Positions 9,001-45,301 of a stretch of 64,000 bases of DNA are shown piece by piece (position 1 is the first letter of the stretch; the number at the start of each line of letters is the position of its first letter). The stretch comes from Chloroflexia bacterium (GTDB lineage: Bacteria > Chloroflexota > Chloroflexia > DTKN01), in NCBI GenBank assembly GCA_049970175.1, contig JBMFNL010000004.1, forward strand, positions 1,822-65,821, in the 5' to 3' direction. The notes beneath the pieces were generated by a model that did not search any database, was not told the DNA's origin, and worked only from the letters and a program-made list of their open reading frames with translations. A program made the translations under genes and the position numbers.

Positions 9001-9183
9001 CGGAACCTCCTCAGGCCCCAGGGCCTTTCCGATGCACAAGCACCGGATTCCTGGATCGGATTATACCCAAAGCCGAGCGGCGGGTCAACCGGAGTGCATG
9101 TTGGTCGTTGGGCGAGGCCGGATTTCGATCCGGCCGTCGCTGCGCTCCGGCCCACTTCACACGGCGCCTCGCCGGGCCGTTCG

Positions 9184-17228: not shown

Positions 17229-17452
17229 CTCGACCTCCCGGCCGATCCAAAACAATCACCGGCCGCGCAAAATGTGCGACGGCCGGTTACGCCACCCGCT
17301 CCACCCGGTCCAGGCGTCCACATGGCGGGCCGGGCTTCATTGCCTCCGTCTGATTCGATTATAAACTTGCCCTGGCTCCCCGTCAATAGGAAAAAAGTAC
17401 CATTTGCGGTAGTACCCTGCGGCCCCCGGAGGCCGGTGGAAAGGCCGGCGAT

Positions 17453-20821: not shown

Positions 20822-23311
20822 GTGGACGTCGAGGAGGTCCTGGAGGCGCTGCAGAACGATCCGGAGGTTGCCCCCCACATCACCGCCTGGCGGACCTGGG
20901 AGGCCCGGCCGGCCCGCTATGCTCCCACGCCGGAGTGGCTCGACCGGCGCCTGCGGGAGGCCCTGGCCGAACTGGGCATCGCCCACCTCTATACCCACCA
21001 GGTCGAGGCGCTGGAGGCGGCGGCACGGGGAGAGCACGTCGTCGTCGCCACCGGCACCGCCTCCGGGAAAAGCCTCTGCTACCACCTGCCCGTCCTCCAG
21101 GCCCTCCTGGAGCATCCCGGCGCCGCCGCCCTCTACCTCTACCCCACCAAGGCGCTGGCCCACGACCAGGAGGCCTTCCTGCGCACCCTGGCCGGGAGGA
21201 CGGCCCTTCCTCCCTTCGGCACCTACGACGGCGATACCCCGCCGGCCCTCCGTCCCCGCCTGCGCCGGGAGGCCCGCCTCCTCCTGACCAACCCGGACAT
21301 GCTCCACGCCGGCATCTTGCCGCGCCACCCCCACTGGGCCCCCTTCCTGGCCGCGCTGCGCTACGTCATCCTGGACGAACTGCACGTCTACCGCGGCCTC
21401 TTCGGGAGCCACGTGGCCAACGTGCTGCGCCGGCTGAAGCGAATCTGCGCCTTTTACGGAAGCCGACCCCGCTTCCTCGTCGCCTCGGCCACCATCGGCA
21501 ACCCGGGGGAACTGGCCGGCCGGCTTCTGGAGGAAGCCGTAACCGTGGTGGAGGACGACGGTGCCCCCCGCGGCCGGCAGCACTTTCTCCTCTACAATCC
21601 CCCGCTGGCCGATCCCGCCCTGGGAATCCGCCGTAGCCTTCTCCTGGAGGCGGAGAATCTGGCCGCCCGCTTCCTGGAGGCCGGCCTGCCCACGGTCGTC
21701 TTCGCCCGTACCCGGCTGGGGATGGAACTGCTCCTCACCGACCTGCGGGAGCGGTGCGGCGGCCGGCGCGGCCGGCTCCGGGGGTATCGCGGCGGCTACC
21801 GGGCGGAGGTGCGTCGGGAGATCGAATCCGGCCTGCGTCGGGGAACGGTGCAGGGGGTGGTGGCCACCAACGCCCTGGAACTGGGCGTGGACATCGGGAC
21901 GCTCTCGGCCTGCATCCTGGCCGGCTATCCGGGGACGATCGCGGCGACCCGGCAGCAGGCCGGCCGCGCCGGCCGCCGGGAGGCCCCCTCCGCGGCCATC
22001 CTCATCGCCGGCCCCGGCCCCCTGGACCAGTACCTGGTTACCCACCCTAACTACTTCTTCGGCCGCTCCCCCGAACAGGCCCACATCCACCCGGATAACC
22101 CCTTTCTCCTGACCGAACACCTGCGCTGTGCCCTCTTCGAACTCTCCTTCGCGGCCGATGAACCCTTCGGCACCGTCCGGCCGACCCCTTACCTGGAGGC
22201 CCTGGCCGCCGAGGGCTGGGCCCTCCCGGCCGGCGGGCGTTACTACTGGATCGGCGGCGCCCCTCCGGCCGAACGCCTCTCCCTGCGCACCACCTCCGCC
22301 GATGTGGTCACCATCGTGGATGACTCCGGGGAAAAGCCGGTTGTCCTGGGGCAACTGGACCGCCCCGGCGCCGCCATCCTGGTCTACCCGGGGGCCGTCT
22401 ACTTGCACGAGGGGTGTTTCTACCAGGTGGAGCGGCTGGACTGGGAGGGCGGCACGGCCTACGTCCGGCCGGCCCGGCCGGAGTACTACACGCAGGCCGG
22501 CCTGGAGGTGGATTGGGAAGTTGCCCTGGAGGCCGGGAACGCGCCCCAGGGCCTGGGGATGCGCCACCACGGCGTGGTCCATGTCCAGGCCCGGGCCGCC
22601 TCCTATCGCCGGGTCCGCCTCTATACCCACGAGACGTTGGGCCGTGGGAGGATCGACCTGCCGCCCCAGGAGTTCCTCACCCAGGCCTTCTGGCTGACCT
22701 TGCCGGCACCGGCCCACGAGATCGTCCGCCCCGACTACGGCCCCAACTGGCCGGAGATGCGTCGCCGCGCCCGGGAGCGCGACCGCTTCATCTGCCAGCA
22801 CTGCGGCGTACACGAGGCCCAGGTCGGCCGCGAGCACGATGTCCACCACCGCATCCCCTTCCGCCGATTCGGCTACCGCCCGGGCGAAAACGAGGCCTAC
22901 CTCCAGGCCAACGACCTCTCCAACCTGGTCACGCTGTGCCGTTCCTGCCACGCCCGGGTGGATCACGGCCCCCGGGAAAGCACTGTGGCCGCCCTGCAGG
23001 GGCTGGGCCACCTCCTGCGCCACGTGGCCCCGCTCTTCCTGATGTGCGACCCCGGCGACATCCAGGTGGGCACCCGCCTGCGTATGCCCCCGGAGGGCCT
23101 ACCCGTCCTCCTCATCTACGACAACTGCCCCGGCGGGGCCGGCCTTAGCCCCCACCTCTTTGAGGCCTGCTCCGAATGGCTGCAGGCCGGCCGCTCCCGT
23201 CTCCTGGAATGCCCCTGCCCGGACGGCTGCCCTTCCTGCATCGGCCCTCCGGAAGAAGGGGAGGAAGGGACCAAGGCACAGGTCGGCCGGCTGCTGGAAC
23301 TGCTGACCTGA
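20822..23311 (+). CDS. MrfA/YprA-like DEXH-box helicase with C-terminal DUF1998 zinc finger and an embedded HNH-like motif
   Basis: Helicase motifs GTASGKS, DELH, ASAT, QQAGRAGRR. HNH-like segment CQHCGVHE...HDVHHRIPF...NLVTLCRSCHARVDHG. DUF1998-like segment DNCPGGAG...LECPCPDGCPSCIG. Confidence 0.75.
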   Translation: MDVEEVLEALQNDPEVAPHITAWRTWEARPARYAPTPEWLDRRLREALAELGIAHLYTHQVEALEAAARGEHVVVATGTASGKSLCYHLPVLQALLEHPGAAALYLYPTKALAHDQEAFLRTLAGRTALPPFGTYDGDTPPALRPRLRREARLLLTNPDMLHAGILPRHPHWAPFLAALRYVILDELHVYRGLFGSHVANVLRRLKRICAFYGSRPRFLVASATIGNPGELAGRLLEEAVTVVEDDGAPRGRQHFLLYNPPLADPALGIRRSLLLEAENLAARFLEAGLPTVVFARTRLGMELLLTDLRERCGGRRGRLRGYRGGYRAEVRREIESGLRRGTVQGVVATNALELGVDIGTLSACILAGYPGTIAATRQQAGRAGRREAPSAAILIAGPGPLDQYLVTHPNYFFGRSPEQAHIHPDNPFLLTEHLRCALFELSFAADEPFGTVRPTPYLEALAAEGWALPAGGRYYWIGGAPPAERLSLRTTSADVVTIVDDSGEKPVVLGQLDRPGAAILVYPGAVYLHEGCFYQVERLDWEGGTAYVRPARPEYYTQAGLEVDWEVALEAGNAPQGLGMRHHGVVHVQARAASYRRVRLYTHETLGRGRIDLPPQEFLTQAFWLTLPAPAHEIVRPDYGPNWPEMRRRARERDRFICQHCGVHEAQVGREHDVHHRIPFRRFGYRPGENEAYLQANDLSNLVTLCRSCHARVDHGPRESTVAALQGLGHLLRHVAPLFLMCDPGDIQVGTRLRMPPEGLPVLLIYDNCPGGAGLSPHLFEACSEWLQAGRSRLLECPCPDGCPSCIGPPEEGEEGTKAQVGRLLELLT

Positions 23312-23350
23312 ACTCCCGGACCGTGCCTGGTCCGCCTTCGCCGGCAGCGT

Positions 23351-23379
23351 TTGACAGCCACCCTTTTCTCTGGCATAAT
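23351..23379 (+). promoter_or_regulatory. Near-consensus promoter TTGACA-17-(TGg)CATAAT
   Basis: Read directly. It is followed by RBS GAGGAGG and the ATG at 23414. Confidence 0.5.
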
Positions 23380-23413
23380 ACCCTCACAACTGCCGGGCCG
23401 GAGGAGGAATGCG

Positions 23414-23602
23414 ATGTCCGAAATCTTGAACTGGTGGACCTGTTCCGAATGCCGTTACACCCTTCAGGCCAAGGAGCCGCCCGAGGTCTGTCCCGCTTGC
23501 CACAAGAAGTGTCAGTTCATCGAGGCTACCTGCTATACCCCGGAGTGCGGGGGACCGGCCAACCCGGATCCGCAGATCATCGCCGGCAAGAAGGCCGACT
23601 GA
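23414..23602 (+). CDS. Small 4-Cys zinc-ribbon protein (62 aa)
   Basis: MSEILNWWTCSECRYT...CPACHKKCQF...CYTPEC. Own promoter and RBS. Confidence 0.6.
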   Translation: MSEILNWWTCSECRYTLQAKEPPEVCPACHKKCQFIEATCYTPECGGPANPDPQIIAGKKAD

Positions 23603-23822
23603 CGGGCTTCCCACGATGTGGGCGGAACTTTGCCGGCCCATGACCTGGCCGATCCGGGCTTTCTCCTGGCCCAGTGGAAGGCTGTCCTGACCACCGTGCT
23701 CTTGTTCCTGGCCCTCCTGCAGGCGCTGGAGCAGACCGTGTTGCGCGACAAGGTCCGTCTTCGGAGGCATGTTTGTAGTCGAGCGAGGCGCCGAGGAGGA
23801 AATGCCTGCGGCGCTTGAGGTC

Positions 23823-23885
23823 GGTGGCTTCGGGGTTTCGATACGCGGCTCCCTTCGGTCGCCGCTACTCAATCGCCGAAGCCGC
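23823..23885. repeat. Short dispersed intergenic element, copy B (ggtggcttcgg-GGTTTCGATACGCGgctcccttcggtcgccGCTACTCAAtcg-ccgaagccgcc); outer arms form an 8-9-bp inverted repeat
   Basis: Read directly. It sits 55 bp upstream of the SbcC-like start. Confidence 0.5.
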
Positions 23886-23939
23886 CCTGGAGATCGCCTT
23901 ACCTAAAGGACCAGGAGACCTTCCCAGGAGGTCGCCGCC

Positions 23940-26498
23940 GTGATACCGGTATCGCTCCACCTGCGTAACTTTATGTGTTACCGCGAAGGCCTCCCTCCCC
24001 TGGAATTTGACTTCCGCCTGGCCTGCCTTTCCGGGCCGAACGGGGCCGGAAAATCGGCCCTCCTGGACGCCATCACCTGGGCGCTCTGGGGACAGGCCCG
24101 CGCCCGCTCCGACGATGCCCTCATCGCTCAGGGAGCCCAGGAAATGGAGGTCGAGTTCGAGTTCCTTCTGGAGGGCAACCACTACCGCGTCTACCGCCGG
24201 CGGGAAAGCGGCGGCCCCCGGGGGGCGGGCAAAACCCGTCTGGAACTCCAGGTCTACAGCCCGCTGGGCTGGAAAACGATGTCCGGAGAGAGCGTTCGCC
24301 AGACGGAGCAGCGCATCGTCGAACTCCTGCGGATGGATTACACCACCTTCATCAACTCCTCCTTCCTCCTGCAGGGCCGGGCCGACGAGTTCACCCTCAA
24401 GCCGCCGGCCGAACGCAAGCGCATCCTGGCCGATATCCTGGGCCTGGGCTACTACGATGTCCTGGAGCAGCGGGCCCGGGAGAGGCTGCGCGATGAGGAG
24501 AAGAACTTCCAGGCCCTCTCCCTGAGTATCGCCGAATTGGAGCGAGAACTGGCCCGTCGGGAAGAACTGGAAGAGGCGCTGGCCCGGGCCGAGGAGGAGG
24601 TAGCCCGGGATGAAGCGCTCCTTTCCCTCCGGCAGAAGGAACTGGCCGAGATCCAGGCCCGGCTGACTTCCCTGGAGGCCGACGCCCGGCAGGCGGAGGA
24701 AGTGCGCCGGAGACTTGCGCGCCTGGAGGAGGAAGGCGCCCGCCTGGAAGAGCGGATGGCCCAGACGGAAAGTCGTCTTCAGGAGGATCGGGCCCTCCTG
24801 GCACGGGAGGCCGAGATCGAAGCCGGCTTCCGCCGCCTCCAGGAGTTACGGGAGCGCAACGAGGCCCTTTCCCAGGCGGCCGGCCGGATTCTATCCCTCT
24901 CCGAGCGCCAGCACGCCCTGGAACAGGCCATCGAGCGGGCCAGGACAGACCTGGTCATGGAACGGGAAGTATTGCGCCGATCCCTCCAGGAGATGGACGA
25001 GCGTCTGGAGGAGCGGCCGGCCATCGAGAGCCGCCTGGAGGAAATCGCCCGGAAACTGGCCGCCCTCCGGGAAAAGGAGGCCCAGCGCAACGCCCTGCTC
25101 GAAGAGGCCCAGGAGCAGGTCGCCGCCATCCGTGCCCTCAAGGCCGATTGCCAGCGCCTGCGGGAGGAGATGGAGGCCCTGCGGCAGAAACTGGACATGC
25201 TGGGGGAGGAAGTCACCCATTGCCCCCTCTGCCAGAACCTCCTCAGCCCGGAATCGTATGCCCACATCCGCTCCTCCTACCAGGCCGAGGGAGAACAGAA
25301 GCGGGACCAGTACCGGCAAAAAGAAACCGAGATTCGCCGCCGGGAGGAAGCCCTGGCCGAACTTCGGGGACGACAGGAAACGTTGGAGCAGGAACTCAGG
25401 CAGGTGCGCCTCTTCGAGGGACAGCAGGCGGCCCTGGAGAAAAGCCGGATGGAACTGGCCCGACTGGCCGAGGAACGGCCGGCCCGGGAAAGCCGCCTGC
25501 GGGAACTCGAACGCGCTCTGGAGGAGGCCGCCTATGCCTCGGAGGAGCGGGCCGCCCTCCTTTCCCTGCAGCGGGAAATCGCCTCCCTGGATTATCGTCG
25601 CGAGGAGCACCAGGCCGTCCAGCAGGAACTGGCCCGGCTGAAGGCCGTCGAGGAAGAATACCACCGGTTGCAGGGCGTCCGCGAGCGCCTGTCCGAAGGC
25701 GAACGCCAGCAGGAGGAGTTGCGGGCCGCCCGAAAGCGCTGCCAGGAGGAACTGGCCCTGGAGGGGGAGCGCCTCTCCGCCCTGGAAGACCGATTGGCCG
25801 AACTGGAGGCCCTCCGCGCCCGCCGGGAGGAGGCCGAAACCGCCCTGCGCGAGGCCCAGGAGGCGCTGGGGCGGGCCCGGCAGGCCCAGGGGAGCGCCCG
25901 CGGGGCCTTGGAGCGCCTCCAGGAGGTCCAGGAGCGCCATCGGGAAAGGAAGCGGGCCTGCGAGGAGACGCTGGAGCGCCGGGGCATCTATGAGGAACTG
26001 ACCTTGGCCCTGGGGAAGCGGGGGGTCCAGGCCATGCTCATCGAAACGGCCGTCCCCGAGATCGAGCGCGAGGCCAACGAACTGCTGGCCCGCATGACCG
26101 ATGGGGAGATGGCCGTGCAACTGGCCATGCAGCGGGAGACGAAGCAGGGCACGGTGGTCGAGACGCTGGACATCAACGTTTCCGATTCGCGGGGCACCCG
26201 CCCCTACGAGAACTTTTCGGGCGGGGAAAAGTTGCGCATTAATCTCGCCCTGCGCATCGCCCTGAGCCGGCTCCTCTCCCGCCGCGCCGGCGCCAGCCTC
26301 CAGACCCTGGTCATCGACGAGGGTTTCGGCACCCAGGATGCCGAAGGCCGGCTGCGCCTGGTGGAGGCCATCCAGTCGGTGGAGAAGGAATTTGAAAGGA
26401 TTCTGGTGATTACCCATCTCCAGGAACTCAAAGACCTTTTTCCGGTGCGCATCGAGATCGCAAAGACGCCCGAAGGAAGCCGATGGACGGTGGTGTAG
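23940..26498 (+). CDS. SbcC/Rad50-like SMC-family ATPase (GTG start)
   Basis: Walker A SGPNGAGKSALLDAI. ~500-aa coiled coil with a CPLC zinc hook (...VTHCPLCQNL...). C-terminal ABC signature and Walker B FSGGEKLRINLALRIALS...LVIDEGFG. RBS CCAGGAGG. Confidence 0.8.
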   Translation: MIPVSLHLRNFMCYREGLPPLEFDFRLACLSGPNGAGKSALLDAITWALWGQARARSDDALIAQGAQEMEVEFEFLLEGNHYRVYRRRESGGPRGAGKTRLELQVYSPLGWKTMSGESVRQTEQRIVELLRMDYTTFINSSFLLQGRADEFTLKPPAERKRILADILGLGYYDVLEQRARERLRDEEKNFQALSLSIAELERELARREELEEALARAEEEVARDEALLSLRQKELAEIQARLTSLEADARQAEEVRRRLARLEEEGARLEERMAQTESRLQEDRALLAREAEIEAGFRRLQELRERNEALSQAAGRILSLSERQHALEQAIERARTDLVMEREVLRRSLQEMDERLEERPAIESRLEEIARKLAALREKEAQRNALLEEAQEQVAAIRALKADCQRLREEMEALRQKLDMLGEEVTHCPLCQNLLSPESYAHIRSSYQAEGEQKRDQYRQKETEIRRREEALAELRGRQETLEQELRQVRLFEGQQAALEKSRMELARLAEERPARESRLRELERALEEAAYASEERAALLSLQREIASLDYRREEHQAVQQELARLKAVEEEYHRLQGVRERLSEGERQQEELRAARKRCQEELALEGERLSALEDRLAELEALRARREEAETALREAQEALGRARQAQGSARGALERLQEVQERHRERKRACEETLERRGIYEELTLALGKRGVQAMLIETAVPEIEREANELLARMTDGEMAVQLAMQRETKQGTVVETLDINVSDSRGTRPYENFSGGEKLRINLALRIALSRLLSRRAGASLQTLVIDEGFGTQDAEGRLRLVEAIQSVEKEFERILVITHLQELKDLFPVRIEIAKTPEGSRWTVV

Positions 26499-27319
26499 GC
26501 GAAATCCCCCGAATCGCCGTGGAACTCTACGGGACCATCCCCGAAGGGACGGTCCGCTCCATCCGGCAGGAGGTCGAGGCTTGCTACCGCGCCCTCACCG
26601 TCCCGCTGCCGGAGGTGGTGAGCCTCTGCCTCTTCGATACCCTGGCCCGTTGGCGGGAATATGCGGCCCGCCGGCGGGAGGAGGCCGGGGTCATTACCGC
26701 CGGCGAAGAGGGCTTCCTGACGACGCACGAAGCCTGGGAAGGCGTGCCCCGGCTGAGCGTCTGCCTGGAACGGTTGGAGGCCCAGCCCCCGCTCGTCCAG
26801 CAGGGGGCGCTGCACCAGGTGGTGGCCCACAGCGTCCTGCACGGCCGGCCCGATTTCTACCGCTTCGCCATCCCCCGCTCGCTCATCGCCGAAAGCCGGG
26901 CGCGAGGGGTAGAATTGGAAATCTTCCAGCAGATCCTCTATTTTGTGGCCATCGCCATCAAAGGCTACCAGGCCGTCTCCCTCCTGGTGGAACACCGCTT
27001 CATCCAGGACCAGGTGGCCCTGGCCCTCCATCAATTGGAGGCCGGGGAAGACGACGTGGCACTCTGGAAGATGGCCCGCTGGGAGCCCCGGGCCCGCCTC
27101 CTCTACCTTTCGGCCCAGTTGAAGCCGCTCCTCTACCTCCGGCCGCTCCTGCCCTATGCCCCGGAACTGGCCGAAGCCGGCCGGGCCATGCTCTCCCACC
27201 TCCCGCCCGAGGAGATCGAGCGCCTGGAGGGCCTGGTGGAGGAACTGGTCGCCCAGCACAGCGGCGATACCCACCGCGACGTCAGCGCCGGCCTGGCCCT
27301 GGTGCTGAGCCGGCTGTAG
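26483..27319 (+). CDS. Hypothetical protein (278 aa), translationally coupled to the SbcC-like gene
   Basis: ATG lies inside the last codons of the upstream gene (...cgATGGacggtggtgTAG). I recognise no domain and see no SbcD-type DxH/GNHD phosphoesterase motifs. Confidence 0.5.
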   Translation: MDGGVGEIPRIAVELYGTIPEGTVRSIRQEVEACYRALTVPLPEVVSLCLFDTLARWREYAARRREEAGVITAGEEGFLTTHEAWEGVPRLSVCLERLEAQPPLVQQGALHQVVAHSVLHGRPDFYRFAIPRSLIAESRARGVELEIFQQILYFVAIAIKGYQAVSLLVEHRFIQDQVALALHQLEAGEDDVALWKMARWEPRARLLYLSAQLKPLLYLRPLLPYAPELAEAGRAMLSHLPPEEIERLEGLVEELVAQHSGDTHRDVSAGLALVLSRL

Positions 27320-27441
27320 GAAATTGGGGGTGGAAACCGGCTTCGGCCGGCCTTCCCCAAGCCGGAGGTTATGGAAGACCGGTCCCGATGAGAACCGACG
27401 ACCTTTAGGTAAGTGTTGAAACCCTTGGTGGAGGTGCAGAA

Positions 27442-28872
27442 ATGGATACAACGCCCACGAACGAACGGAAATCGTTATCGCTGCGCGAAGCCGTCGCCCA
27501 GGTCCTGGCCCAGCTGGACGGTCCTATCGCGCTGGAGGAGTTTGACCAACGGGTGCTGGCCGTTCGCCCTTCCTCGGCCAAGAACCCCCGCGCCTCGCTG
27601 CACACTCACCTGCGCTGGGAAGAAATCGGCAAGACCCTGGTCTTTCTGGACGACCGGACGATCTTGCCCCTGCGCATCGCCATGCGCGGGGTCCGCTTCC
27701 GCATCCCGCTGGCCCGTCAGGAGGTCGAGTCCGGTATCCTGCCGATCGAGCCGGCTTTCGACTATTTCTTATGCCCGAGCCTCTCCAAAGAGGCGGTGCA
27801 GTTGCTCGACAGGGAAGGCCGGCCGCTGCCGGCCGAGTTCGTGACCATCCGGAGCACGGTCCGCGCCCCAATCTTCGGGGAGCATATCTATGGAATGCCC
27901 GCCTTCAACCTGGATACATGGTTCCGCTCCTGCCAGGTTCGCCGGGGCGACAGCCTTCTGGTCACCATCGAAGACTGGGAGGCCGGCCGCTTCCGCCTGG
28001 AACACGAGCCGGCCGGCCGTCGCCGGAAGGCCGAGATCGCCCGAAAGAACCGGGAACTGGCCGATATCCTCTTTGATATGCTGGAGTCGGCCCGGGATGA
28101 GTGCCTCTTTGCCTATATGGCCATCCCCACGGCCTACGCCCGCCTGACCGACCCACGGGGCTACCCCGGCGACCACTGGTTCGATGTCCTGAAGAGCGAC
28201 CCCCGCATGGCGTACAATGGGTGGATAATCACCTACAGCGACTACCAGACGCCGCTGGAAGAGGCGATCTTCGGGCAAAGAAACCTGCCCGAGGAGGTGT
28301 TCACCCCGGCCCAGGGTCGCCGGGTCTATCGCTTCAAGGCGGCCCTGTGGCATCGGCCGTCTCTGTGGCGAACCATCGAGATTCAGGGGAGACAGACCCT
28401 GGCCGACTTGGACCGCATCCTGCGCGAAGCCTTTCACCACGACTGCTTCGACCACATGGGCGGATTCTGGAAGCGGATCCAACGCGGCCAGGGGCGCAGA
28501 TTCCGGGAGGTGGACCTGGGCAGCATCGAGCCATTTGGCGGCGGCGATGGGGCCGACCGGCACATCGCCACCCTGGGGCTGGAGGTGGGCGGCGAACTCA
28601 AGTACGTATACGATTTTGGCGACTGGATCGAACACCGCCTGACGCTGGAACAGATCGCCGAACCGGAGAGCGGAGCCCAATACCCGCGCATCGTCGGCCG
28701 GAACCCGCCTCGCTACCAGAACTGTCAGTCGTGCGCGGCGCGCGGCCGTAAAGTGCGGGCGAGTTGGATCTGCCTCGAGTGCTCGGACAAGCAGCAGCGC
28801 GACATACTGGTCTGTGAAAAGTGCCTGGAGGAGGAACACCAGGACCATTACGCCGAGCAAATCTTCTATTGA
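27442..28872 (+). CDS. Hypothetical protein (476 aa) with C-terminal pRiA4b ORF-3-like module and terminal Cys-rich finger
   Basis: LWRTIEIQGRQTLADLDRILREAFHHDCFDHMGGFW and KYVYDFGDWIEHRLTLEQI match, from memory, the PF07929-type signature (IWRR...LH...HLH.F...YxYDFGDxWxH). C-terminal CQSC-x10-CLEC-x10-CEKC..H..H. Confidence 0.55.
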   Translation: MDTTPTNERKSLSLREAVAQVLAQLDGPIALEEFDQRVLAVRPSSAKNPRASLHTHLRWEEIGKTLVFLDDRTILPLRIAMRGVRFRIPLARQEVESGILPIEPAFDYFLCPSLSKEAVQLLDREGRPLPAEFVTIRSTVRAPIFGEHIYGMPAFNLDTWFRSCQVRRGDSLLVTIEDWEAGRFRLEHEPAGRRRKAEIARKNRELADILFDMLESARDECLFAYMAIPTAYARLTDPRGYPGDHWFDVLKSDPRMAYNGWIITYSDYQTPLEEAIFGQRNLPEEVFTPAQGRRVYRFKAALWHRPSLWRTIEIQGRQTLADLDRILREAFHHDCFDHMGGFWKRIQRGQGRRFREVDLGSIEPFGGGDGADRHIATLGLEVGGELKYVYDFGDWIEHRLTLEQIAEPESGAQYPRIVGRNPPRYQNCQSCAARGRKVRASWICLECSDKQQRDILVCEKCLEEEHQDHYAEQIFY

Positions 28873-37387: not shown

Positions 37388-38647
37388 CTACGGCCAACGG
37401 CTGTACTGGGCCACGTAGGCTTTGACCGCATGATAGGCCGGCCGGGGGTTGCCGGCCGGGTCAATGAGGCCAAAGGCCGACTTCTGATCGTCGGGCGGGT
37501 TGGTGCGGGCAAAGTTCAGGTTCCAGATGAACATGGCCCCCATCCAGGGCTGGTAGGTGGTGCGGCCCATCTCCAGCGCCCGCACCAAATAGTCCGCCTG
37601 GTCCTGGGCCGTGTTATAGGCGGCGTACTCGTAGCCGGGAGCGGCCACTTCGGTGATGCCTTCGATGGAGGCCCAGCCGAACTCGGTGATCCAGATCTGT
37701 TTTTCGCCGTCGCCGTACGTTTCCATCACCTTGCGGATGTTCTCGACATGGCGGAAATAATGGGTCGGGTGGTCCACCCAACCCGGACCGGGGCCGGGGC
37801 GATCGGGCCAGAGCGTATCCGGAGGATTGAGCGTGCCGGCCACATGCACGGCCAGGACGTCGAAATAGTTCCGTACGACACCATCCTGGTACCGGTACAC
37901 CGCCTCCAGGTAGGCGATGTCATCAAGGGCGATGGCGGGGTCGTTCACCCCGGTGGGCGTCAGGGGGCCGAAGAGGACGATGGCCAGCGGATCGGCCTCC
38001 TTGATGCGGGTATAGGCCACCTTCAGGAGTTCCACATAGCGGCCCGGCCCCTGGACGTAGCCGGCGTTTTCCACAGCATAGTTCTGCTCGTTCCAGATCT
38101 CATAGGCCTGGATACGCCCCCGGTAACGGGTGGCCATCGCGTAGAGGAAATCGCCCAGGTCGTTGGGATCGGTCGGCATCCCGGGGCCGCCGTCCTCTGT
38201 AGCCCAGCCCGGGGCGCGGACGATGCTCACCAAGAGTTTCCGTTGGTGTTGCCCCACGGCCTCCACCACGTTGTCCAGTTCATCCCAGATGTAGTAGCCC
38301 TTGGAGCCCTCGATATACTCCCACCAAACCTGCTGGCGCACCCATTCGATGCCCAGGTCGTCCACATAGCCCAGGACCTCGTCATAGTCCTTGTAGAACA
38401 GGTCCACGTCAATGCCGAAGGAAAAATAGGGCGTATGCATCGGGAAGGTGGGGTCCGGCGTTGGGCTGGGGGTCAGCGTGGGGCCGGGCGTTCGGGTGGG
38501 CTTGGGCGTGTTCGTCGGCACCGGCGTCTCCACGGCCACCGAAACCGGGGGGAGGGAAGGCATCGTGGTCGTCGGCCCGCAGGCGGCCAGGAGGGAGGCG
38601 AGCACGGCGAGGGCGATGAGGAAACGGAAGGGCTTAGAGCAGGTCAT
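37388..38647 (-). CDS. Secreted lipoprotein glycoside hydrolase, clan GH-A (GH5-like), paralog 1
   Basis: Lipobox LLAACG. PT-rich linker. YEIWNEQNY (NEP-type acid/base) and IWITEFGW (nucleophile) motifs. Confidence 0.65.
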   Translation of the reverse strand: MTCSKPFRFLIALAVLASLLAACGPTTTMPSLPPVSVAVETPVPTNTPKPTRTPGPTLTPSPTPDPTFPMHTPYFSFGIDVDLFYKDYDEVLGYVDDLGIEWVRQQVWWEYIEGSKGYYIWDELDNVVEAVGQHQRKLLVSIVRAPGWATEDGGPGMPTDPNDLGDFLYAMATRYRGRIQAYEIWNEQNYAVENAGYVQGPGRYVELLKVAYTRIKEADPLAIVLFGPLTPTGVNDPAIALDDIAYLEAVYRYQDGVVRNYFDVLAVHVAGTLNPPDTLWPDRPGPGPGWVDHPTHYFRHVENIRKVMETYGDGEKQIWITEFGWASIEGITEVAAPGYEYAAYNTAQDQADYLVRALEMGRTTYQPWMGAMFIWNLNFARTNPPDDQKSAFGLIDPAGNPRPAYHAVKAYVAQYSRWP

Positions 38648-38685
38648 CGCGGTCTCCTTTCGTGTTGCGTGTTGCGTGTTGCGTG

Positions 38686-39960
38686 TTACGGCCATTGGGT
38701 GTGTTCCCGGATGTCGTCGCGCACGGCTTTGTAGGCCGGCCGGAGGGACCAATCGGCCCGCAGCAGGCTGAAGGGGGCCTTTTCGTCCGTCGGCGGGGTG
38801 ATGGTGGCAAAGTTCAGGTTCCAGATGAACATGGCCCCCAGCCAGGGCTGGTAAATGGTGCGGCCCATCTCCAGCGCCTGAATCAGGTAGACGGACTGCT
38901 CATACTCCGTGTTGTTGAGGGCGTATTCGTAGCCGGGAGCGGGCGTATCGCCGATATTTTCCAGCGAAGCCCAGCCGAACTCGGTGATCCAGATTTGTTT
39001 TTCGCCGTCACCGTATTCCTCCATCACCCGGCGGATGTTTTCCACGTGACGGAAGTAGAAGGTGGGATGGTCCACCCAGCCCGGGCCGGGGCCGGGACGT
39101 TCGGGCCAGAGGGTATCGGGCGGGTTGTGCACACCGGCCACATGGGCGGCCAGGACGTCGAAATACCCTTTGACCTCGCCGCCGTTGTATTCGTACATCT
39201 GACGCAGGTAGGTGATGTCATCAATGGCGATGTTGGGATCGTTCACGCCGGTGGGCGTCAGGGGGCCCAGGAGGACAAAGGCGTAGGGGTCGGCCTCCTT
39301 GATGCGGGTGTAGGCCACCTTCAGGAGTTCCACGTAGCGGCCCGGCCCCTGGACGTAGCCGTCGTTTTCCACAGCATAGTTCTGCTCGTTCCAAATCTCA
39401 TAGGCCTGGATGCGGCCGGCGTAGCGGGTGACCATAGCATGGAGGAAATCGCCCAGGTCATCGGGGTTGGCCGGCATCCCGTAGCCGCCGTCGGCGGTGG
39501 CCCAGGAAGGCGAACGGACGATGCTCACCAGAAGTTTCCGGTAGTAGCGGCCCACCGCGTCCACGACCTTGTCCATCTCATCCCAGACGTACTCGCCTTT
39601 GGCCGGCTCGAGGTCGGCCCAGGAGACCTGCTGGCGCTCCCACTCCACCCCCAGGTCGTTGACGTATTCCATAATGTCGTCCTGGCTGCGCCCGACCACT
39701 TCGGGGTAGAAGAGGTGGGCATTGATGCCGTAGGAAAAGTGGGTGGTGCGCATGGGGAAAAACGGGTCGGGTGTGGGCGAGGGGGTGAGGGTAGGCGGTG
39801 GGGGAGGCGTGGGTTCGGGCGTGGCCGTCGGTTCGACGACGGCCGTCGGCTGGGCCGTGGGCACGATAGGCGGAGGCGTTTGCGGAGCGGCCGGCCCGCA
39901 GGCCCCCAAGAAGAGGGCCAGGACCAGGGTCGGCCAGACGATCCTCTTGTTTCGACGCAT
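38686..39960 (-). CDS. Secreted lipoprotein glycoside hydrolase, clan GH-A (GH5-like), paralog 2
   Basis: Lipobox LFLGACG. Same NEQ and TEFGW motifs. Roughly 60-70% identical to paralog 1 by eye. Confidence 0.65.
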   Translation of the reverse strand: MRRNKRIVWPTLVLALFLGACGPAAPQTPPPIVPTAQPTAVVEPTATPEPTPPPPPTLTPSPTPDPFFPMRTTHFSYGINAHLFYPEVVGRSQDDIMEYVNDLGVEWERQQVSWADLEPAKGEYVWDEMDKVVDAVGRYYRKLLVSIVRSPSWATADGGYGMPANPDDLGDFLHAMVTRYAGRIQAYEIWNEQNYAVENDGYVQGPGRYVELLKVAYTRIKEADPYAFVLLGPLTPTGVNDPNIAIDDITYLRQMYEYNGGEVKGYFDVLAAHVAGVHNPPDTLWPERPGPGPGWVDHPTFYFRHVENIRRVMEEYGDGEKQIWITEFGWASLENIGDTPAPGYEYALNNTEYEQSVYLIQALEMGRTIYQPWLGAMFIWNLNFATITPPTDEKAPFSLLRADWSLRPAYKAVRDDIREHTQWP

Positions 39961-40027
39961 TCGGTTCTCCTTTTTTTGTAAAATCAAGGGCCGGCCGATT
40001 CCGGCTCGGCGGGAGCGGCATAGGCGC

Positions 40028-41758
40028 TCACTTGGGCATTCCGGCCAGGGCGGTATAGGCCGGCCGCAGCGTCCCGTTGGGGCGGATGACCCCAAAGGAG
40101 GACTTTTCATCGGTGGCGGGGAAACAGGTGGCAAAGTTCAGGTTCCAGACGAACATGGCCCCCATCCAGGGCTGATACTCGGTACGTGCCTTTTCAAAGG
40201 CTCGCACCAGGTAATCGGCCTGCTCCTGCTCCGAGTTGTAGTAGCCGTATTCATAGCCCCGGGCGGCACGGGAGGTAACGTTTTCCGTAGAGGCCCAGCC
40301 GAACTCGGTGATCCAGATGGGCTTATCGCCCATCCCATAGGCCACCATGACGGCGCGAATGTTCTCCACATGGCGGAAGTAGTGGGTGGGGTGGTCCACC
40401 CAGCCGGGGCCGGGACCGGGGTTATCCGGCCAAAGGGTGTCGGGAGGATTGAGCGTGCCGGCCACATGCACGCCCAGGACATCGAAATAGTTGCGGATGA
40501 TGCCGCCCTGGTATTCGAGCATCCGCTTCAGGTAGGTGATGTCGTCAATAGCCAGGTAGGGGTTGTTCACGCCGGTGGGGGTGAGGGGGCCGCAGACCAC
40601 GATGGCCCCGGGGTCGGCCTCCTTGATGCGGCGGTAGGCCACCTTCAGGAGTTCGACGTAGCGGTCGGCCCCGGCCACATAGCCGTCGTTCTCCACGGCA
40701 TAGTTCTGTTCGTTCCAGACCTCATAGGCCTGCACCTGTCCCCGATAGCGGGAGGCCATGGCGTAGAGGAAATCGCCCAGATCGTTCGGGTTGGCCGGCA
40801 TCCCGTGTCCGCCCCCCCGAGTGGCCCAGGCCGGGGACCAGACGATGCTGAACATCACCTGAATCCCCTTCTGGCCGGCCTTTTGGGCGATCACATCGAG
40901 AAAGCCCCAGTTGTAGGCGCCCTTGACCGGCTCGATGTCGGCCCAGTGGACCTGCTGGCGAATCCAGCCGAAGCCGGCCCCCCGAACCAGGTCCAGGACG
41001 CCGTCGATGTTGCTCCCGGTCAGGTGCACGTCAAAGCCGTAGCGTAGGTTGCCGGAGGTCGCCGGGGGCGGCGTGGGCGTCGGTGTGGGCGTGGGCATGG
41101 ACAGAGGAGCGCCGCTTCCCTGCAATCGGTGCAGGTACTCGTAGCCGAGCAACCCCAACAGCACCTCGTAGGGCGTGCCGGCCAGTTCGGGGTGGTACTC
41201 GAAGCGGTTGCGCTCAAAGTACTGCACCAGGTAAGTCTGGCCGTCGGTGGGGCTGACCTCATAGAACGGTTCGGAGATGGGATAGCCGAAGACCGGGAGG
41301 CCTCCATAGCGCCTCCAGTAGTCCAGGAAGACGCCGCTCAGGGAATGCCCGCCATAATAGGGGAAGTAGAGCCGGCCCGGCGTATCGGAATGGGGCTCGG
41401 GCGCCGGATCGAAGGTGCGCCCCTGGGTGACGATGAGGCCGAGCAGGCGCAGGAGGACCTCGTAGCGCGTGCCGGCATATTCGGGATGGTACTCGAAGAT
41501 GGCCCGCTCAAAGTACTGGGTCAGGTAGGTATTTCCATCGGTGCTGAGGTCCAGGAACTCGTCGGTGATGGGGTAGCCGAAGATGTAGAGGCCGCCGTTG
41601 TTCTCCCAGTAATCCAGGAAGGCTCCGGAGACGGTATGCCCGGTTTCGGCGAAATAGCGGGAGCGCGTCGTTCCAGGCGCGGCCCCGGCCGGCCATGCGG
41701 CCAGAGGCAGGAGCACCCCCAGGACCAGAAGGAAACCCATCCATCGCCGAACGATCAT
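40028..41758 (-). CDS. Secreted glycoside hydrolase, clan GH-A paralog 3, with two N-terminal ~75-aa LGFP-like repeats
   Basis: Signal peptide. Tandem repeats ...GG(L/Y)xxFGYPI(T/S)(D/E)xF...TYL(T/V)QYFER..FEYHPE...YEVLL.LLG resemble LGFP cell-wall-binding repeats. C-terminal half has the same GH-A motifs VWNEQNY and IWITEFGW. Confidence 0.6.
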   Translation of the reverse strand: MIVRRWMGFLLVLGVLLPLAAWPAGAAPGTTRSRYFAETGHTVSGAFLDYWENNGGLYIFGYPITDEFLDLSTDGNTYLTQYFERAIFEYHPEYAGTRYEVLLRLLGLIVTQGRTFDPAPEPHSDTPGRLYFPYYGGHSLSGVFLDYWRRYGGLPVFGYPISEPFYEVSPTDGQTYLVQYFERNRFEYHPELAGTPYEVLLGLLGYEYLHRLQGSGAPLSMPTPTPTPTPPPATSGNLRYGFDVHLTGSNIDGVLDLVRGAGFGWIRQQVHWADIEPVKGAYNWGFLDVIAQKAGQKGIQVMFSIVWSPAWATRGGGHGMPANPNDLGDFLYAMASRYRGQVQAYEVWNEQNYAVENDGYVAGADRYVELLKVAYRRIKEADPGAIVVCGPLTPTGVNNPYLAIDDITYLKRMLEYQGGIIRNYFDVLGVHVAGTLNPPDTLWPDNPGPGPGWVDHPTHYFRHVENIRAVMVAYGMGDKPIWITEFGWASTENVTSRAARGYEYGYYNSEQEQADYLVRAFEKARTEYQPWMGAMFVWNLNFATCFPATDEKSSFGVIRPNGTLRPAYTALAGMPK

Positions 41759-41825
41759 CCAGTCCACCTCCTTCTTTGCCGGTATGTCGCGGGGTATTAT
41801 ACCATCACCCTCCGACCCAGGCAAA

Positions 41826-41854
41826 TTGACGTCGGCCTTCCTCGGCCCTATAAT
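41826..41854 (+). promoter_or_regulatory. Consensus-like promoter TTGACG-17-TATAAT
   Basis: Read directly. Followed by GGAGGG RBS and GTG at 41887. Confidence 0.5.
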
Positions 41855-41886
41855 GGGATACACAGGTTCGGATCGGAGGGCTCGCG

Positions 41887-42453
41887 GTGGATAGACGGAG
41901 CCGGCGGCAGGCCGCCTGGATCGAGATACCGCTCGGCGAGGTCCGGCTGGTCGCTCCGGCGCACCTAGCCGACTGGCCGCGGCGGGCCGAGGTGGTGCCC
42001 GGCTTTGCCGAGCGGGTGGCCCGGGCCCGGTCCACCGGCCGCTGGCCGGGAGCGCCCCTTCGAGTACGCCGCCAGGGCGAAGGCTACGTGCTGGTGAGCG
42101 GCTTTTCCCGTCTGGCCGTGGCTTTCGAGGCCGGCCTGCCGGTGGTGCGCGCCGTGGTGGAGCCGGCCGCCCGGGCGATCCCGCTCGCCGCGATCCGGCT
42201 GCGCCCCTGGCAGGAACGGGCCCGCCTGAATGCCGAGAAACTGGACCGGCGGCTGAAGATGGCCCGGGCGACGGCCGGAGGGATGCCGGGCCATCTGAGC
42301 CTGCCCGTTCCGCTGGTGGTGCGGCCGGCCCGCACGGGAGAGCCGGCCGGCTACATCCTCCTGGATGGGCTGTATTGGTATCACGTCGCCCTGGCCCTGG
42401 CCCGGGAGAGACGATTGGATAACCCCTCCGTGCCCGCTATCGTGCGAGGTTGA
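41887..42453 (+). CDS. Protein with two degenerate ParB/Srx-like N-terminal-domain repeats
   Basis: PLRVRRQGEGYVLVSGFSRLAVAFEAGLPVVRAVV and PLVVRPARTGEPAGYILLDGLYWYHVALA...VPAIV both fit the ParB-box pattern (P.xV...g.YxLxxGxxRxxAa...vPaxV) but lack the GERR arginines. Confidence 0.5.
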   Translation: MDRRSRRQAAWIEIPLGEVRLVAPAHLADWPRRAEVVPGFAERVARARSTGRWPGAPLRVRRQGEGYVLVSGFSRLAVAFEAGLPVVRAVVEPAARAIPLAAIRLRPWQERARLNAEKLDRRLKMARATAGGMPGHLSLPVPLVVRPARTGEPAGYILLDGLYWYHVALALARERRLDNPSVPAIVRG

Positions 42454-43654
42454 GATGCCGTTCGATATCGCCCACCTGATGCCGGCCATCGAGGACCTGG
42501 CCTCCTACTACGCTTCGGAGGTTGTCCCCGACCTGCACAACTGCTCTGAAGCCGCCCGAGCCTTGCTTCAGGAGACGTCCAGGGAAACGCTGGAGGAGGT
42601 TTCTTGCAAGCCGGCCCTGCGGGTCCTGGCCATGCCCCTGGAGGACCCCGGCCGGGCCCTGGCCGCCCCGCCGCCTCCGGAAGGATACCGCGTCCTGGCC
42701 AGCGACGGCTCGTCGGTGGACGTGGACCCGCACTTCCCGGCGCGCTACGTCCTCCTGCACACGGCCCTGGCCGGCCTGGCCTATGGCCCGCCGGCCTACT
42801 GGACCGAGCACGTCCCGCGCCTCTTCTTCCGCCGGGAGGAACTGGAACTCGCTTACCCGGGAAGCGAGGAGCCGGTGGAGGTGGAAGGCCCGGTGGTGGT
42901 CACGCTGCGGGCCTATGAGGAGTTACGGGCGCTGGGCGAAGGGGTGGGCCGGCTTCTCCAAAGCCCGGACGATCGCCCGCTTCTGGCGATGATGGACGCC
43001 GTGATCCTCTGGACCCACCACGGAAGCGGTCCGGGCCACGAGGCCTTGCGGGAAGATTACCTGCGCCGCAGCGTGGAGCAGGTGGACCGGTTTCGGAAGT
43101 GGGGCGTTCCCCTGGTCAGTTTCACCAGCATGCCCCGCCACCGAGAAGTGGTCAACACCCTCCTGGCCCTGGGCTGCCCGCAGGAACGCAAGTTGGCCTG
43201 CAGCGACTGTCGGGAGCCGCGCCGGGAGTGCCTGTTCCTGCAGGGGTTGCAGGATCGCCACCTCTTTTCCTTTCTGAAGGAGGGAGAGCGTTCGGCCCTT
43301 TTCCGGCCCGTTTACCGGGGAGATACGGCCTGGCGATTGCCCCCCGGGGTACAGCCGTTCGATCCGGAACTCGTCTTTTTCTACCTCAACACCGGCCCGG
43401 AGGTCGCCCGGGTGGAGATGCCGCTTTGGATCTTCCGGGACAACCTCCTGCCGACCGTGCACGCCGTCCTCCTGGACCAGTGCCGGCCGCGGCGGGCCGA
43501 TACGGTGGGCTATCCCCTGGCCCTGACCTTGGCCCACCGGGAGGCCGTCCTGACGGCCCAGGACCGCCGGTTCATCCAGTGGCTGGTGGAGGAGGCCCTG
43601 GCCCGCCGGGGGCTGTATCTTCCCCCCTCGGCCAAGGCGGAGATGAAGGAGTAG
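42452..43654 (+). CDS. NurA-like (RNase H-fold) nuclease candidate
   Basis: VLASDGSSVDVD (NurA motif I-like xDGS). Downstream acidic residues MMDAVILW. ~400 aa. Start overlaps the upstream stop (TGAGATG). Confidence 0.45.
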   Translation, partial: EMPFDIAHLMPAIEDLASYYASEVVPDLHNCSEAARALLQETSRETLEEVSCKPALRVLAMPLEDPGRALAAPPPPEGYRVLASDGSSVDVDPHFPARYVLLHTALAGLAYGPPAYWTEHVPRLFFRREELELAYPGSEEPVEVEGPVVVTLRAYEELRALGEGVGRLLQSPDDRPLLAMMDAVILWTHHGSGPGHEALREDYLRRSVEQVDRFRKWGVPLVSFTSMPRHREVVNTLLALGCPQERKLACSDCREPRRECLFLQGLQDRHLFSFLKEGERSALFRPVYRGDTAWRLPPGVQPFDPELVFFYLNTGPEVARVEMPLWIFRDNLLPTVHAVLLDQCRPRRADTVGYPLALTLAHREAVLTAQDRRFIQWLVEEALARRGLYLPPSAKAEMKE

Positions 43655-43675: not shown

Positions 43676-45301
43676 TCACCGGCCCCCGCCGGCGCAGGCA
43701 CAGGCACAGCCGGCGCAAGCACAGGCACAGGCGCAGGCACAGCCCCCTCCGCTCCGGGAACTGCCGGAGTAGGAGGGGCGCGGGGGCGGGTTGGTCGCCT
43801 GGGTGACCCCGCCGGTGAAGCCGGTGACGCTGCGAACGATTCGGCCGGCCGTGTCGGAGACGCCGCGCACGACCTTGGCCGCAAAGTCGGCCCCCGGGAG
43901 GGTCACCGGCCCGGCGGTCGGGGCCCCGCCGGCCGGGAGGGCCCAGGGGCGGTAATGCCCCCACCAGGTCGGCACATACACCGGCCCCTCGCGGAAGGTG
44001 CGCTCGGTGCGGCGCTCGAAATCGTCGTCCAGCAGGGTCCACTCCAGCCCTTCGTCGAACAGGCGGCTGCGCACCTCGGGCGTCTGCGCCCCCTCCACCT
44101 GCTCCCAGGCCCGCCGGATGATGTCGCGGTAGTAGGCCGCCGTCTCCTTCCGGCTGAAGCCCTTCATCTTGTTGTTGACCTCTTTGACCAGGGCGATCAT
44201 CATCTCCTGGAGTTTCTTCTCCTGCAGTGCGCCTTGGTCATCAACGGCCGCCAAAAAGTCCTGCTCATACGGATACAGTCCTTCCGGCCGGGGCTCGTTC
44301 TTCTGCAGGCGCAGCGGATCGCCCTGGAGCACGGTCAGCGCTCCCTTCTTGAGCAGGCCGAAGAGAATCATCGTCAGCACCTTGTTGAGCGGCGTCTCCA
44401 GGACGATGGCCGCCTCCACCGCCGTCAGGCCGCGTTTGATGCCCACCCCCTCCACCTTCATCTCGGGGGGCAAGTAGGCCAGCCGCCTCCGCGCCTGCGC
44501 CCGATGGCCGACCACGATCAGGGCCACGACCAGCGCGCCGATGATGACGACCGGGTTCAAAAGGAAACGGCCCACCGCCTCCAACGCCTTGAGCACGGGC
44601 GAGGGAGCCTTTTGAACGGCCGACGCATCCACGTAGGACCGCGGGAAGGAGGCGCCAAAGATGTACTGCCGGTCCGGCCGGGCATCCGGATTCGTCCAGC
44701 GATAGACGATACGGCCCTCCTCGATGTAGGCCTCCGGCTGCTCCTGGGGCCAGCCGGAGGGACTGGCGTGCCAGCGCGGCTCCTCCGGTTGCACGCCGGG
44801 AGGCAGGTGAAAGCGCACGGTCAACTCGGTGGAGCCGTGGACCAGGCTGCCGTCGAACCAGGTGGGGGAGAATTCGATGCTGGCGTAGTTGGGGTCCCGG
44901 CCGTCCTCGTAGAGCATCTTCCCCACGCCCTCTATCCACACCCGGACGGTTCCGCTTCGGCCGGGGCGGATGGCCTGGCCTCCCAGGTAGACGGCCACGC
45001 CCGGCTGGACGTAGGGCGAGGGCTCGATCCAGGAGAGGGCCTCTCCATTCGCCTCGGCCTGGACGTTGTCCAGGCGGATTTCGTTGGGCAACCCCACGTC
45101 CACGACGTCAATAGGGTCGGCTCCGAGGTCGCAGGTGAAGGTGAAGGCATAGGCCAGACGGACCGTGCCGTCCCGGTTGATCCAGACATCCACCTCCTCG
45201 CGGTCCAGGGTGAAGGAATAGGTCTGGGCCCGGACGGTGCCGGCCGGAGCCAGCAGAACGATCAAAGCCACCAGCAAGAGGACGGTCCGCCACCTGCACA
45301 T
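43676..45301 (-). CDS. DUF2207-family membrane protein (secreted N-domain, central TM, cytoplasmic domain, low-complexity C-terminal tail)
   Basis: Signal peptide. Central helix NPVVIIGALVVALIVVG. Architecture typical of DUF2207. Tail SGGGCACACACACAGCACACAGGGR. Confidence 0.6.
   Translation of the reverse strand: MCRWRTVLLLVALIVLLAPAGTVRAQTYSFTLDREEVDVWINRDGTVRLAYAFTFTCDLGADPIDVVDVGLPNEIRLDNVQAEANGEALSWIEPSPYVQPGVAVYLGGQAIRPGRSGTVRVWIEGVGKMLYEDGRDPNYASIEFSPTWFDGSLVHGSTELTVRFHLPPGVQPEEPRWHASPSGWPQEQPEAYIEEGRIVYRWTNPDARPDRQYIFGASFPRSYVDASAVQKAPSPVLKALEAVGRFLLNPVVIIGALVVALIVVGHRAQARRRLAYLPPEMKVEGVGIKRGLTAVEAAIVLETPLNKVLTMILFGLLKKGALTVLQGDPLRLQKNEPRPEGLYPYEQDFLAAVDDQGALQEKKLQEMMIALVKEVNNKMKGFSRKETAAYYRDIIRRAWEQVEGAQTPEVRSRLFDEGLEWTLLDDDFERRTERTFREGPVYVPTWWGHYRPWALPAGGAPTAGPVTLPGADFAAKVVRGVSDTAGRIVRSVTGFTGGVTQATNPPPRPSYSGSSRSGGGCACACACACAGCACACAGGGR
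43693..43745. repeat. Imperfect hexanucleotide microsatellite (GCACAG/GCGCAG)~9 inside the CDS, encoding a (Cys-Ala)n tail
   Basis: Read directly: gcaggcacaggcacagccggcgcaagcacaggcacaggcgcaggcacagcc. Confidence 0.7.

Follow-up and report, generated by a model that had tools for sequence, protein, structure and literature searches.

The stretch of DNA analysed here, 64,000 nucleotides from a Chloroflexia bacterium (GenBank assembly GCA_049970175.1, contig JBMFNL010000004.1), is referred to as the window. This report concerns two adjacent genes on its forward strand which, together with their promoter, occupy positions 41826 to 43654. The first encodes a small protein made up of two degenerate ParB/Srx-type N-domains, and the second a protein of the NurA nuclease family. 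Almost all work on NurA has dealt with its part as the nuclease of the HerA-NurA resection machine. In the present case its gene is joined to one of a different kind, and the two form a conserved unit with its own promoter in one narrow lineage of uncultured Chloroflexia.

Two genes behind one promoter

The operon and its control region comprise the following elements.
41796-41824, minus strand: divergent promoter-like site TTGCCT-17-TATAAT with a TG extension, directed toward the glycosidase gene
41826-41854, plus strand: sigma-70-type operon promoter, with -35 TTGACG at 41826-41831, a 17-nucleotide spacer and -10 TATAAT at 41849-41854
41875-41879, plus strand: Shine-Dalgarno-like GGAGG, 7 nucleotides 5' of the gene 1 GTG at 41887
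41887-42453, plus strand: gene 1, GTG start, 188 amino acids, tandem ParB/Srx N-domain protein
42455-43654, plus strand: gene 2, ATG start, 399 amino acids, NurA-family nuclease (predicted)

An earlier sequence-only reading of this locus had described a consensus promoter TTGACG-17-TATAAT in front of gene 1. Read directly and by a promoter scan, this site agrees with the consensus at 11 of 12 positions. In the whole window, seven sites reach at least 11 of 12 positions, against 0.06 expected from shuffled sequences (9088, 17386 and 45776 on the minus strand; 23351, 35914, 41826 and 56472 on the plus strand). Since near-consensus promoters are frequent in this genome, the description of the operon as strongly promoted is true yet unexceptional: its promoter is real but ordinary. 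The abundance of such sigma-70 sites is an aid to operon mapping in this organism.

The promoter was compared among loci in which the pair has no immediately preceding gene on the same strand (n = 8). In these loci, drawn from different neighbourhoods, TTGAC-17-CCTATAAT is invariant 5' of the orthologous gene 1, and besides the -35 and -10 boxes the alignment contains no conserved upstream element, inverted repeat or operator. As the sole conserved upstream element across the eight loci, the promoter belongs to the cassette. A LexA-type box (GAAC-N4-GTTC) was looked for by eye in the promoter region and is not present there. The divergent site is part of the shared intergenic region (41759-41886) and lies outside the operon proper; its -35 box and that of the operon promoter stand back to back, 1 nucleotide apart (AGGCAA-A-TTGACG).

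Orthologues carry AGGAGG or GGAGG at the equivalent position 5' of gene 1. The stop codon of gene 1, TGA (42451-42453), is followed by a single G and then by the ATG of gene 2 at 42455 (TGA-G-ATG). Stop and start, earlier described as overlapping, are thus 1 nucleotide apart. A GAGG is found 5 nucleotides 5' of this ATG, which is the most plausible start of gene 2 because all homologues begin with MPFD. Translational coupling of the two genes is likely.

The two proteins

In the product of gene 1 the ParB/Srx N-terminal domain is present twice through internal duplication; two such repeats had been proposed in the sequence-only reading.
41908-42168, plus strand: ParB/Srx repeat 1, residues 8-94, with GFSR (G72-R75) at the GERR position
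42169-42450, plus strand: ParB/Srx repeat 2, residues 95-188, with DGLYW (D160-W164, invariant) at the GERR position

Profiles of the N-terminal and C-terminal halves align with each other in hhalign (Prob 95.6, E 1.1e-8, 35% identity over 74 columns). The family profile matches Thermus Spo0J (1vz0; E 2.7e-10), and in this match query positions 58-103 and 95-177 both align to the same N-domain. With the AlphaFold model of the protein (predicted local distance difference test, pLDDT, 91.5; predicted template modelling score, pTM, 0.72), Foldseek returned ParB-CDP (6sdk), M. xanthus ParB, Noc, KorB and sulfiredoxin at a probability of 1.0 (the matches include 7bnk, 7ol9 and 6ky4). Each of these matches spans about 90-98 columns, that is, one repeat. 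No PDB structure and no BFVD viral model covers both repeats, the query-normalised TM-scores being at most 0.39, which again corresponds to a single repeat. The window protein alone stays below the Pfam cut-off for ParB_N (PF02195; 14.1 vs 26.3 bits), and this family is matched by 23 of 30 homologues.

The GERR motif of the ParB nucleotide pocket is degenerate in both repeats. It had been stated that both lack its arginine, which holds for repeat 2 (GLYW) and not for repeat 1, where GFSR preserves the GxxR pattern and hence the last arginine. In the homologue alignment G72, F73 and R75 are invariant, and S74 is found in at least 90% of the sequences. Furthermore, repeat 2 retains PWQE(R/K), which aligns with PYQPR of ParB. 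The protein therefore resembles the CTP-dependent clamps ParB/Spo0J, Noc and KorB (PF02195) in having the ParB N-terminal fold in each half, with PxQxR kept in repeat 2 and the last GERR arginine in repeat 1. It differs from them in consisting of two N-domains, which take up all 188 residues, with neither a helix-turn-helix (HTH) module for parS binding nor a C-terminal dimerisation domain. For this reason gene 1 does not encode a partition ParB. Moreover, in contrast to a ParABS locus, neither gene flanking the pair in the window is ParA (one encodes a glycosidase, the other a protein of 541 amino acids with no family match); parS was not searched for.

A protein built solely of two degenerate ParB N-domains is a rare architecture. 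When the profile was run against 1.84 billion representatives clustered at 50% identity, the tandem family formed one cluster at E <=1e-30. Two distant relatives at about 1e-20, P0163 (339 amino acids) and P0164 (258 amino acids), have three ParB_N-like repeats, and all other matches cover a single repeat. The third repeat of P0163 and P0164 has an intact DGLLR motif. The gene 1 protein is strongly basic, with an isoelectric point (pI) of 11.6 and 30 arginines; the family median pI is 10.7.

The gene 2 product is assigned to the NurA family on the strength of Pfam PF09376, which it matches over residues 152-365 with 45.1 bits (gathering cut-off 21; E 1.2e-11) and which is matched by all 35 of its homologues (best E 1.2e-27). 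The NurA-like nature of the second protein, which the sequence-only reading had laid open to refutation, is thereby upheld, and an identical protein is named 'DNA double-strand break repair nuclease NurA' at NCBI. It is predicted to be a nuclease of the RNase H/PIWI type with an intact two-metal site.
42704-42706, plus strand: codon of D84 in LASDGS, predicted first metal-binding aspartate
42920-42922, plus strand: codon of E156, predicted catalytic glutamate
42995-42997, plus strand: codon of D181, predicted second aspartate
43175-43231, plus strand: cysteine cluster C241-x7-C249-x2-C252-x6-C259, possible metal-binding knuckle
43514-43564, plus strand: C-terminal NurA motif GYPxxLxLAH(361)xEAxLxxxDR(370-371), with the predicted catalytic histidine H361

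The xDGS motif noticed earlier is the one that contains D84. All 30 aligned sequences, relatives of only 26-33% identity included, share this residue as well as E156, D181, H361, D370 and R371. In P. furiosus NurA, two Mn2+ ions are bound by D51, E105, D126 and H411 (PMC3300031), and the four residues of the window protein resemble these in order and spacing. The correspondence is based on motif order and on an alignment of the C-terminal motif to 2ygk, not on structural superposition. As a whole the sequence is too distant from solved NurA chains for a significant PDB match: with a broader NurA profile the best match among PDB sequences was the C-terminal motif of S. solfataricus NurA (2ygk; E 1.4), not significant by itself, and a narrower profile gave matches to dihydropteroate synthase that are at chance level only. 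The model (pLDDT 78, pTM 0.80) shows long N-terminal helices as in the NurA dimerisation N-domain. The cysteine cluster, in which C241, C249 and C259 are invariant and C252 nearly so, marks this bacterial NurA clade; the model has a low pLDDT there (61-76), and the cluster may bind metal. The protein is acidic, with a pI of 5.6, equal to the family median.

The pair shares with the HerA-NurA complex of archaea and Deinococcus-Thermus the PF09376 nuclease with its D-E-D-H pattern, the N-terminal helices, and the organisation in a two-gene operon with a partner. However, the partner is a protein of 188 amino acids without a P-loop instead of the FtsK-like hexameric HerA ATPase, an adjacent Mre11-Rad50 is missing, and the window NurA has an invariant cysteine cluster (C241/C249/C259).

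Inheritance of the pair and relatives without HerA

Close relatives of each protein fall into only about 40 clusters among 5.8 billion proteins. The named relatives of both all come from metagenome-assembled genomes (MAGs) labelled 'Chloroflexia bacterium', and many of them lie on shared contigs. Nine loci, all in Chloroflexia MAGs, were found in GTDB with one genome per species, and 12 loci in JGI metagenomes. Synteny in relatives, which the sequence-only reading had set as a second point of possible refutation, turned out to be kept, and the two genes diverge together.
ParB-like gene directly upstream of NurA: about 15 distinct loci (duplicates removed)
NurA alone: 2 distinct loci (L002, L011/L012)
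ParB-like gene alone: 2 distinct loci (L021, L028)

Pairwise identities of the two proteins are correlated (r = 0.87, 45 pairs), and their charges are complementary in the window (pI 11.6 vs 5.6) as well as in the family medians (10.7 vs 5.6). The pair occurs in at least four unrelated neighbourhoods.
Neighbourhood 1: glycosidase cluster (window, L003 and L007)
Neighbourhood 2: fabH-fabD-fabG on one side, peptidase M28 on the other
Neighbourhood 3: peptidase C25 and a pterin-binding protein
Neighbourhood 4: CinA and peptidase M16 on one side, NrdD on the other

At L002, the solitary NurA adjoins the same glycosidase as in the window; an open reading frame (ORF) of 640 amino acids upstream of it, considered as a HerA candidate, proved to be an artefact that runs antisense to the orthologous glycosidase gene. 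The NurA of L011/L012 is the most divergent of the clade (46% identity). A split ParB-like gene was sought among the small ORFs 5' of it: tblastn with the ParB-like protein as query gave no match in L011/L012, and the translations are unrelated by eye. Around the solitary ParB-like genes of L021 and L028, the neighbours show no substitute nuclease partner.

The absence of HerA from the vicinity of the pair, already remarked upon in the sequence-only reading, has been confirmed on a larger scale. HerA was found neither among the 24 window proteins scanned with Pfam nor by tblastn, with the HerA of L033 as query, in the window and 34 further loci, which together make up about 384 kb, and none is encoded within 5-10 kb of any pair in the fetched flanks. 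Furthermore, a profile search uncovered a sister clade of NurA proteins of about 408 amino acids, 26-33% identical to the window protein, with more than 100 clusters. Among its members are genomes of 2.5-8 Mb, of which one bears the name Dehalococcoidia. This clade, which includes complete genomes, is much more widespread than that of the window. Its nurA gene has a fixed position in the order selB-(PaREP1)-nurA-cinA, with no adjacent HerA and usually no small partner.
L032, 5629-7227: selB-nurA-cinA locus
L030, 779-2377: selB-nurA-cinA locus
L034 and L035, 5001-6227: selB-nurA-cinA loci

These solo Chloroflexota NurA proteins are the closest outgroup of the window NurA. They have in common with it the catalytic residues, the cysteine cluster and the lack of an adjacent HerA, and differ from it in having no ParB-like partner and in their fixed genomic position. 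Upstream of the distant relatives P0036 and P0037, where ParB or HerA was looked for, the genes encode the SelB C-terminus, PaREP1 or unrelated proteins. In some genomes of the sister clade, an inserted PaREP1 gene (123 amino acids, HEPN-related) abuts the start codon of NurA, so that PaREP1-NurA represents another small-partner variant of a HerA-less NurA.

One relative, the NurA of L033 (33% identity), has a HerA (HAS-barrel and DUF87) two genes downstream. In this region (L033 6001-11500), NurA is followed by an HSDR_N_2 protein, a protein of 199 amino acids whose gene overlaps that of HerA, and a patatin gene. As the HerA is flanked by the overlapping 199-amino-acid gene and the patatin gene, it may belong to a separate HerA-effector (defence) system; alternatively, this is a true NurA-HerA neighbourhood.

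The solitary NurA genes bear on the notion that the pair functions like a toxin-antitoxin system, in which the small upstream ParB-fold protein would neutralise a potentially toxic NurA and the strong promoter would possibly be autoregulated. The layout taken alone, with a small gene upstream of a larger nuclease gene, a gap of 1 nucleotide and a near-consensus promoter, is compatible with such a system, as are the opposite charges of the two proteins and the PaREP1 genes that abut certain sister-clade NurA genes. However, NurA stands alone in L002 and throughout the sister clade, with no signs of toxicity. In addition, the small protein contains no HTH, ribbon-helix-helix or AbrB DNA-binding module, nothing operator-like is conserved beyond the -35 and -10 boxes, and the setting is not mobile, the plasmid and IMG/VR searches being empty. 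We regard this notion as highly unlikely.

Possible role of the pair and its surroundings

On the basis of this information, the reading that we favour, with a probability of about 0.45, is that this NurA nuclease is chromosomal, works independently of HerA and has the basic ParB-fold protein as its accessory subunit. The acidic NurA would do the cutting, as a 5'-3' exo- and endonuclease on DNA ends or single strands like the characterised NurA enzymes. The basic partner, in effect a covalent pseudo-dimer of degenerate N-domains, would bind nucleic acid and may also bind one nucleotide, given the GxxR that survives in repeat 1 and the PxQxR in repeat 2. Through physical interaction, it would recruit, load or gate NurA and so take the regulatory place of HerA without being a motor. 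The role would likely be one in housekeeping DNA repair or processing rather than in defence against mobile elements. Several elements lead to this reading: the intact active site, the combination of a basic partner with an acidic nuclease, the probable translational coupling, the co-inheritance and co-divergence of the genes, the housekeeping setting, and the nature of the nearest outgroup, a fixed solo chromosomal gene next to cinA.

It could further be imagined that the tandem protein imitates, in covalently closed form, the ParB N-domain dimer in its nucleotide-engaged state, with one composite nucleotide site made up of GxxR of repeat 1 and PWQxR of repeat 2, and that it loads or gates a NurA dimer without being a motor. 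This extension is speculative and carries a low probability. If true, it would amount to a new kind of HerA-independent machine for end resection or DNA degradation, serving repair or immunity.

Some observations weigh against an accessory subunit of a HerA-independent NurA. The pairing is not obligate, as the loci with NurA only (L002, L011/L012) and with the ParB-like gene only (L021, L028) demonstrate. A HerA could be encoded elsewhere in the genome, beyond the 64-kb window. A physical interaction of the two proteins is a matter of inference, and nucleotide binding is doubtful, since the canonical ParB pocket is degenerate in both repeats. Finally, the NurA of L011/L012 is placed in a defence-island-like setting (L011 3000-14000), amid HTH, HD_4, GmrSD_N (DUF262), HNH and PolyA_pol/HD genes.

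The first of these points, and the limitation of the visible genome to 64 kb, would also fit a linkage that is transcriptional only. NurA would then use a distal HerA-type or other motor, and the ParB-like protein would serve a separate purpose, such as that of a nucleoid-associated or nucleotide-binding protein. An SbcC/Rad50-like ATPase is encoded 16 kb upstream in the window, and the NurA relative of L033 has its HerA close by. That HerA may be part of a separate system, however, and the flanks of the pairs are free of HerA over 5-10 kb. Moreover, the neighbourhood has been rearranged at least four times with adjacency and promoter intact, the divergence of the proteins is correlated, and stop and start form a tightly coupled junction between the two genes. 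All of this makes mere co-transcription a distinctly unlikely explanation.

The L011 setting is best discussed together with the main rival, a defence module. A ParB-fold sensor combined with a nuclease effector is an established design: in GmrSD and SspE, a DUF262 nucleoside triphosphatase (NTPase) domain controls a nuclease domain. The pair could be viewed as a split analogue of these proteins, in which the ParB/Srx protein would respond to a nucleotide signal or to DNA that is foreign or modified, and license NurA to degrade such DNA. Like them it brings together a ParB/Srx-fold module and a nuclease, and the DGLYW of repeat 2 presumably resembles the DUF262 DGQQR motif in position. The occasional loss of either gene would suit a defence function, and so would a compact cassette that has its own promoter and has moved between neighbourhoods. 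The NurA gene of L011/L012 lies among genes that include GmrSD_N, which is of the ParB fold itself.

In comparison with GmrSD and SspE, however, the two modules are separate polypeptides, the nuclease is NurA (predicted RNase H/PIWI type) and not DUF1524/HNH, and the arginine of DGxxR is replaced by an invariant tryptophan. With both GERR motifs degenerate, an NTPase switch is hard to reconcile with the protein, and the L011 island is without a ParB-like gene. The hidden Markov models of PADLOC-DB 2.0 gave no match for either protein at E up to 1, nor did PHROG, and searches of 72,556 plasmids and of the IMG/VR viral contigs turned up no relatives. The flanks of the pairs consist of housekeeping genes, with no integrases seen and no other defence genes, and the family is restricted to one Chloroflexia lineage with a co-divergence that is consistent with vertical descent. 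A defence module is therefore considered unlikely. Given these findings and the solo chromosomal outgroup, the origin from defence or from plasmid partition that the sequence-only reading had suggested is not supported. Its more general idea of nucleic-acid targeting is a sensible one, and the evidence leans to chromosomal DNA processing over immunity or partition.

NurA itself is already known and annotated as such here. As far as the searched literature shows, in which nothing relevant on a NurA-ParB pairing was found, what is new is the stable association of NurA with a degenerate ParB/Srx protein of tandem build, how rare such a protein is, and the existence of HerA-less NurA clades in Chloroflexota. 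The occurrence of NurA with a non-ATPase partner here, and with no adjacent partner in the larger sister clade, shows that bacterial NurA works in other settings too, and one may ask how these enzymes gain access to DNA without a translocase. Gene 1 could show what the ParB/Srx fold does after the loss of the CTP switch. The system probably comes from thermophiles; its lineage is narrow and uncultured, and nothing so far points to a new biological principle.

The window around the pair is ordinary chromosome, with genes for MurJ, YceG, TGT, RuvA, IleRS and transporters. The pair had been described as wedged between a glycosidase cluster and a DUF2207 membrane protein. The cluster is indeed present; the DUF2207 assignment was not confirmed, since the downstream neighbour has no match in Pfam, NCBIfam or PHROG.
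37388-41863, minus strand: three paralogous secreted TIM-barrel glycosidase-like genes, with weak GH10/GH42/GH5 matches
43676-45301, minus strand: convergent neighbour of 541 amino acids, with a signal peptide and membrane-type segments
20822-28872, plus strand: run of DNA-metabolism genes, 13-21 kb upstream of the pair
5461-9039 and 12387-17255, minus strand: ORFs of 1192 and 1622 amino acids
35875-36573, plus strand: RuvA, 5 kb upstream of the pair

The longest of the three glycosidase-like genes has an additional N-terminal repeat region. In L003 and L007 the trio likewise lies upstream of the pair, and a copy adjoins the L002 NurA. The glycosidase next to the operon probably starts at the methionine of its signal peptide (MIVRRWMGFLL, about 41758) and not at the GTG at 41863. 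The convergent neighbour ends in an unusual Cys-Ala tail (GGGCACACACACAGCACACAGGGR), which derives from a GCACAGGC-like repeat at about 43680-43750.

The run of DNA-metabolism genes, which could be a repair or a defence cluster, encodes a DEAH helicase (TIGR03817-like, 644 bits, below the cut-off) that has an HNH insertion and, at its C-terminus, an MrfA Zn-binding domain (DUF1998), the SbcC/Rad50-like ATPase (852 amino acids) with no obvious SbcD/Mre11 adjoining it, a protein of 278 amino acids without matches, and a PRiA4_ORF3-like protein. The two very long ORFs on the minus strand have a gene-like codon composition and no Pfam match at E <=1e-4. Within the RuvA ORF there is a perfect promoter (12 of 12 positions, TTGACA-18-TATAAT, starting at 35914), which suggests that the true start of RuvA is located further downstream.

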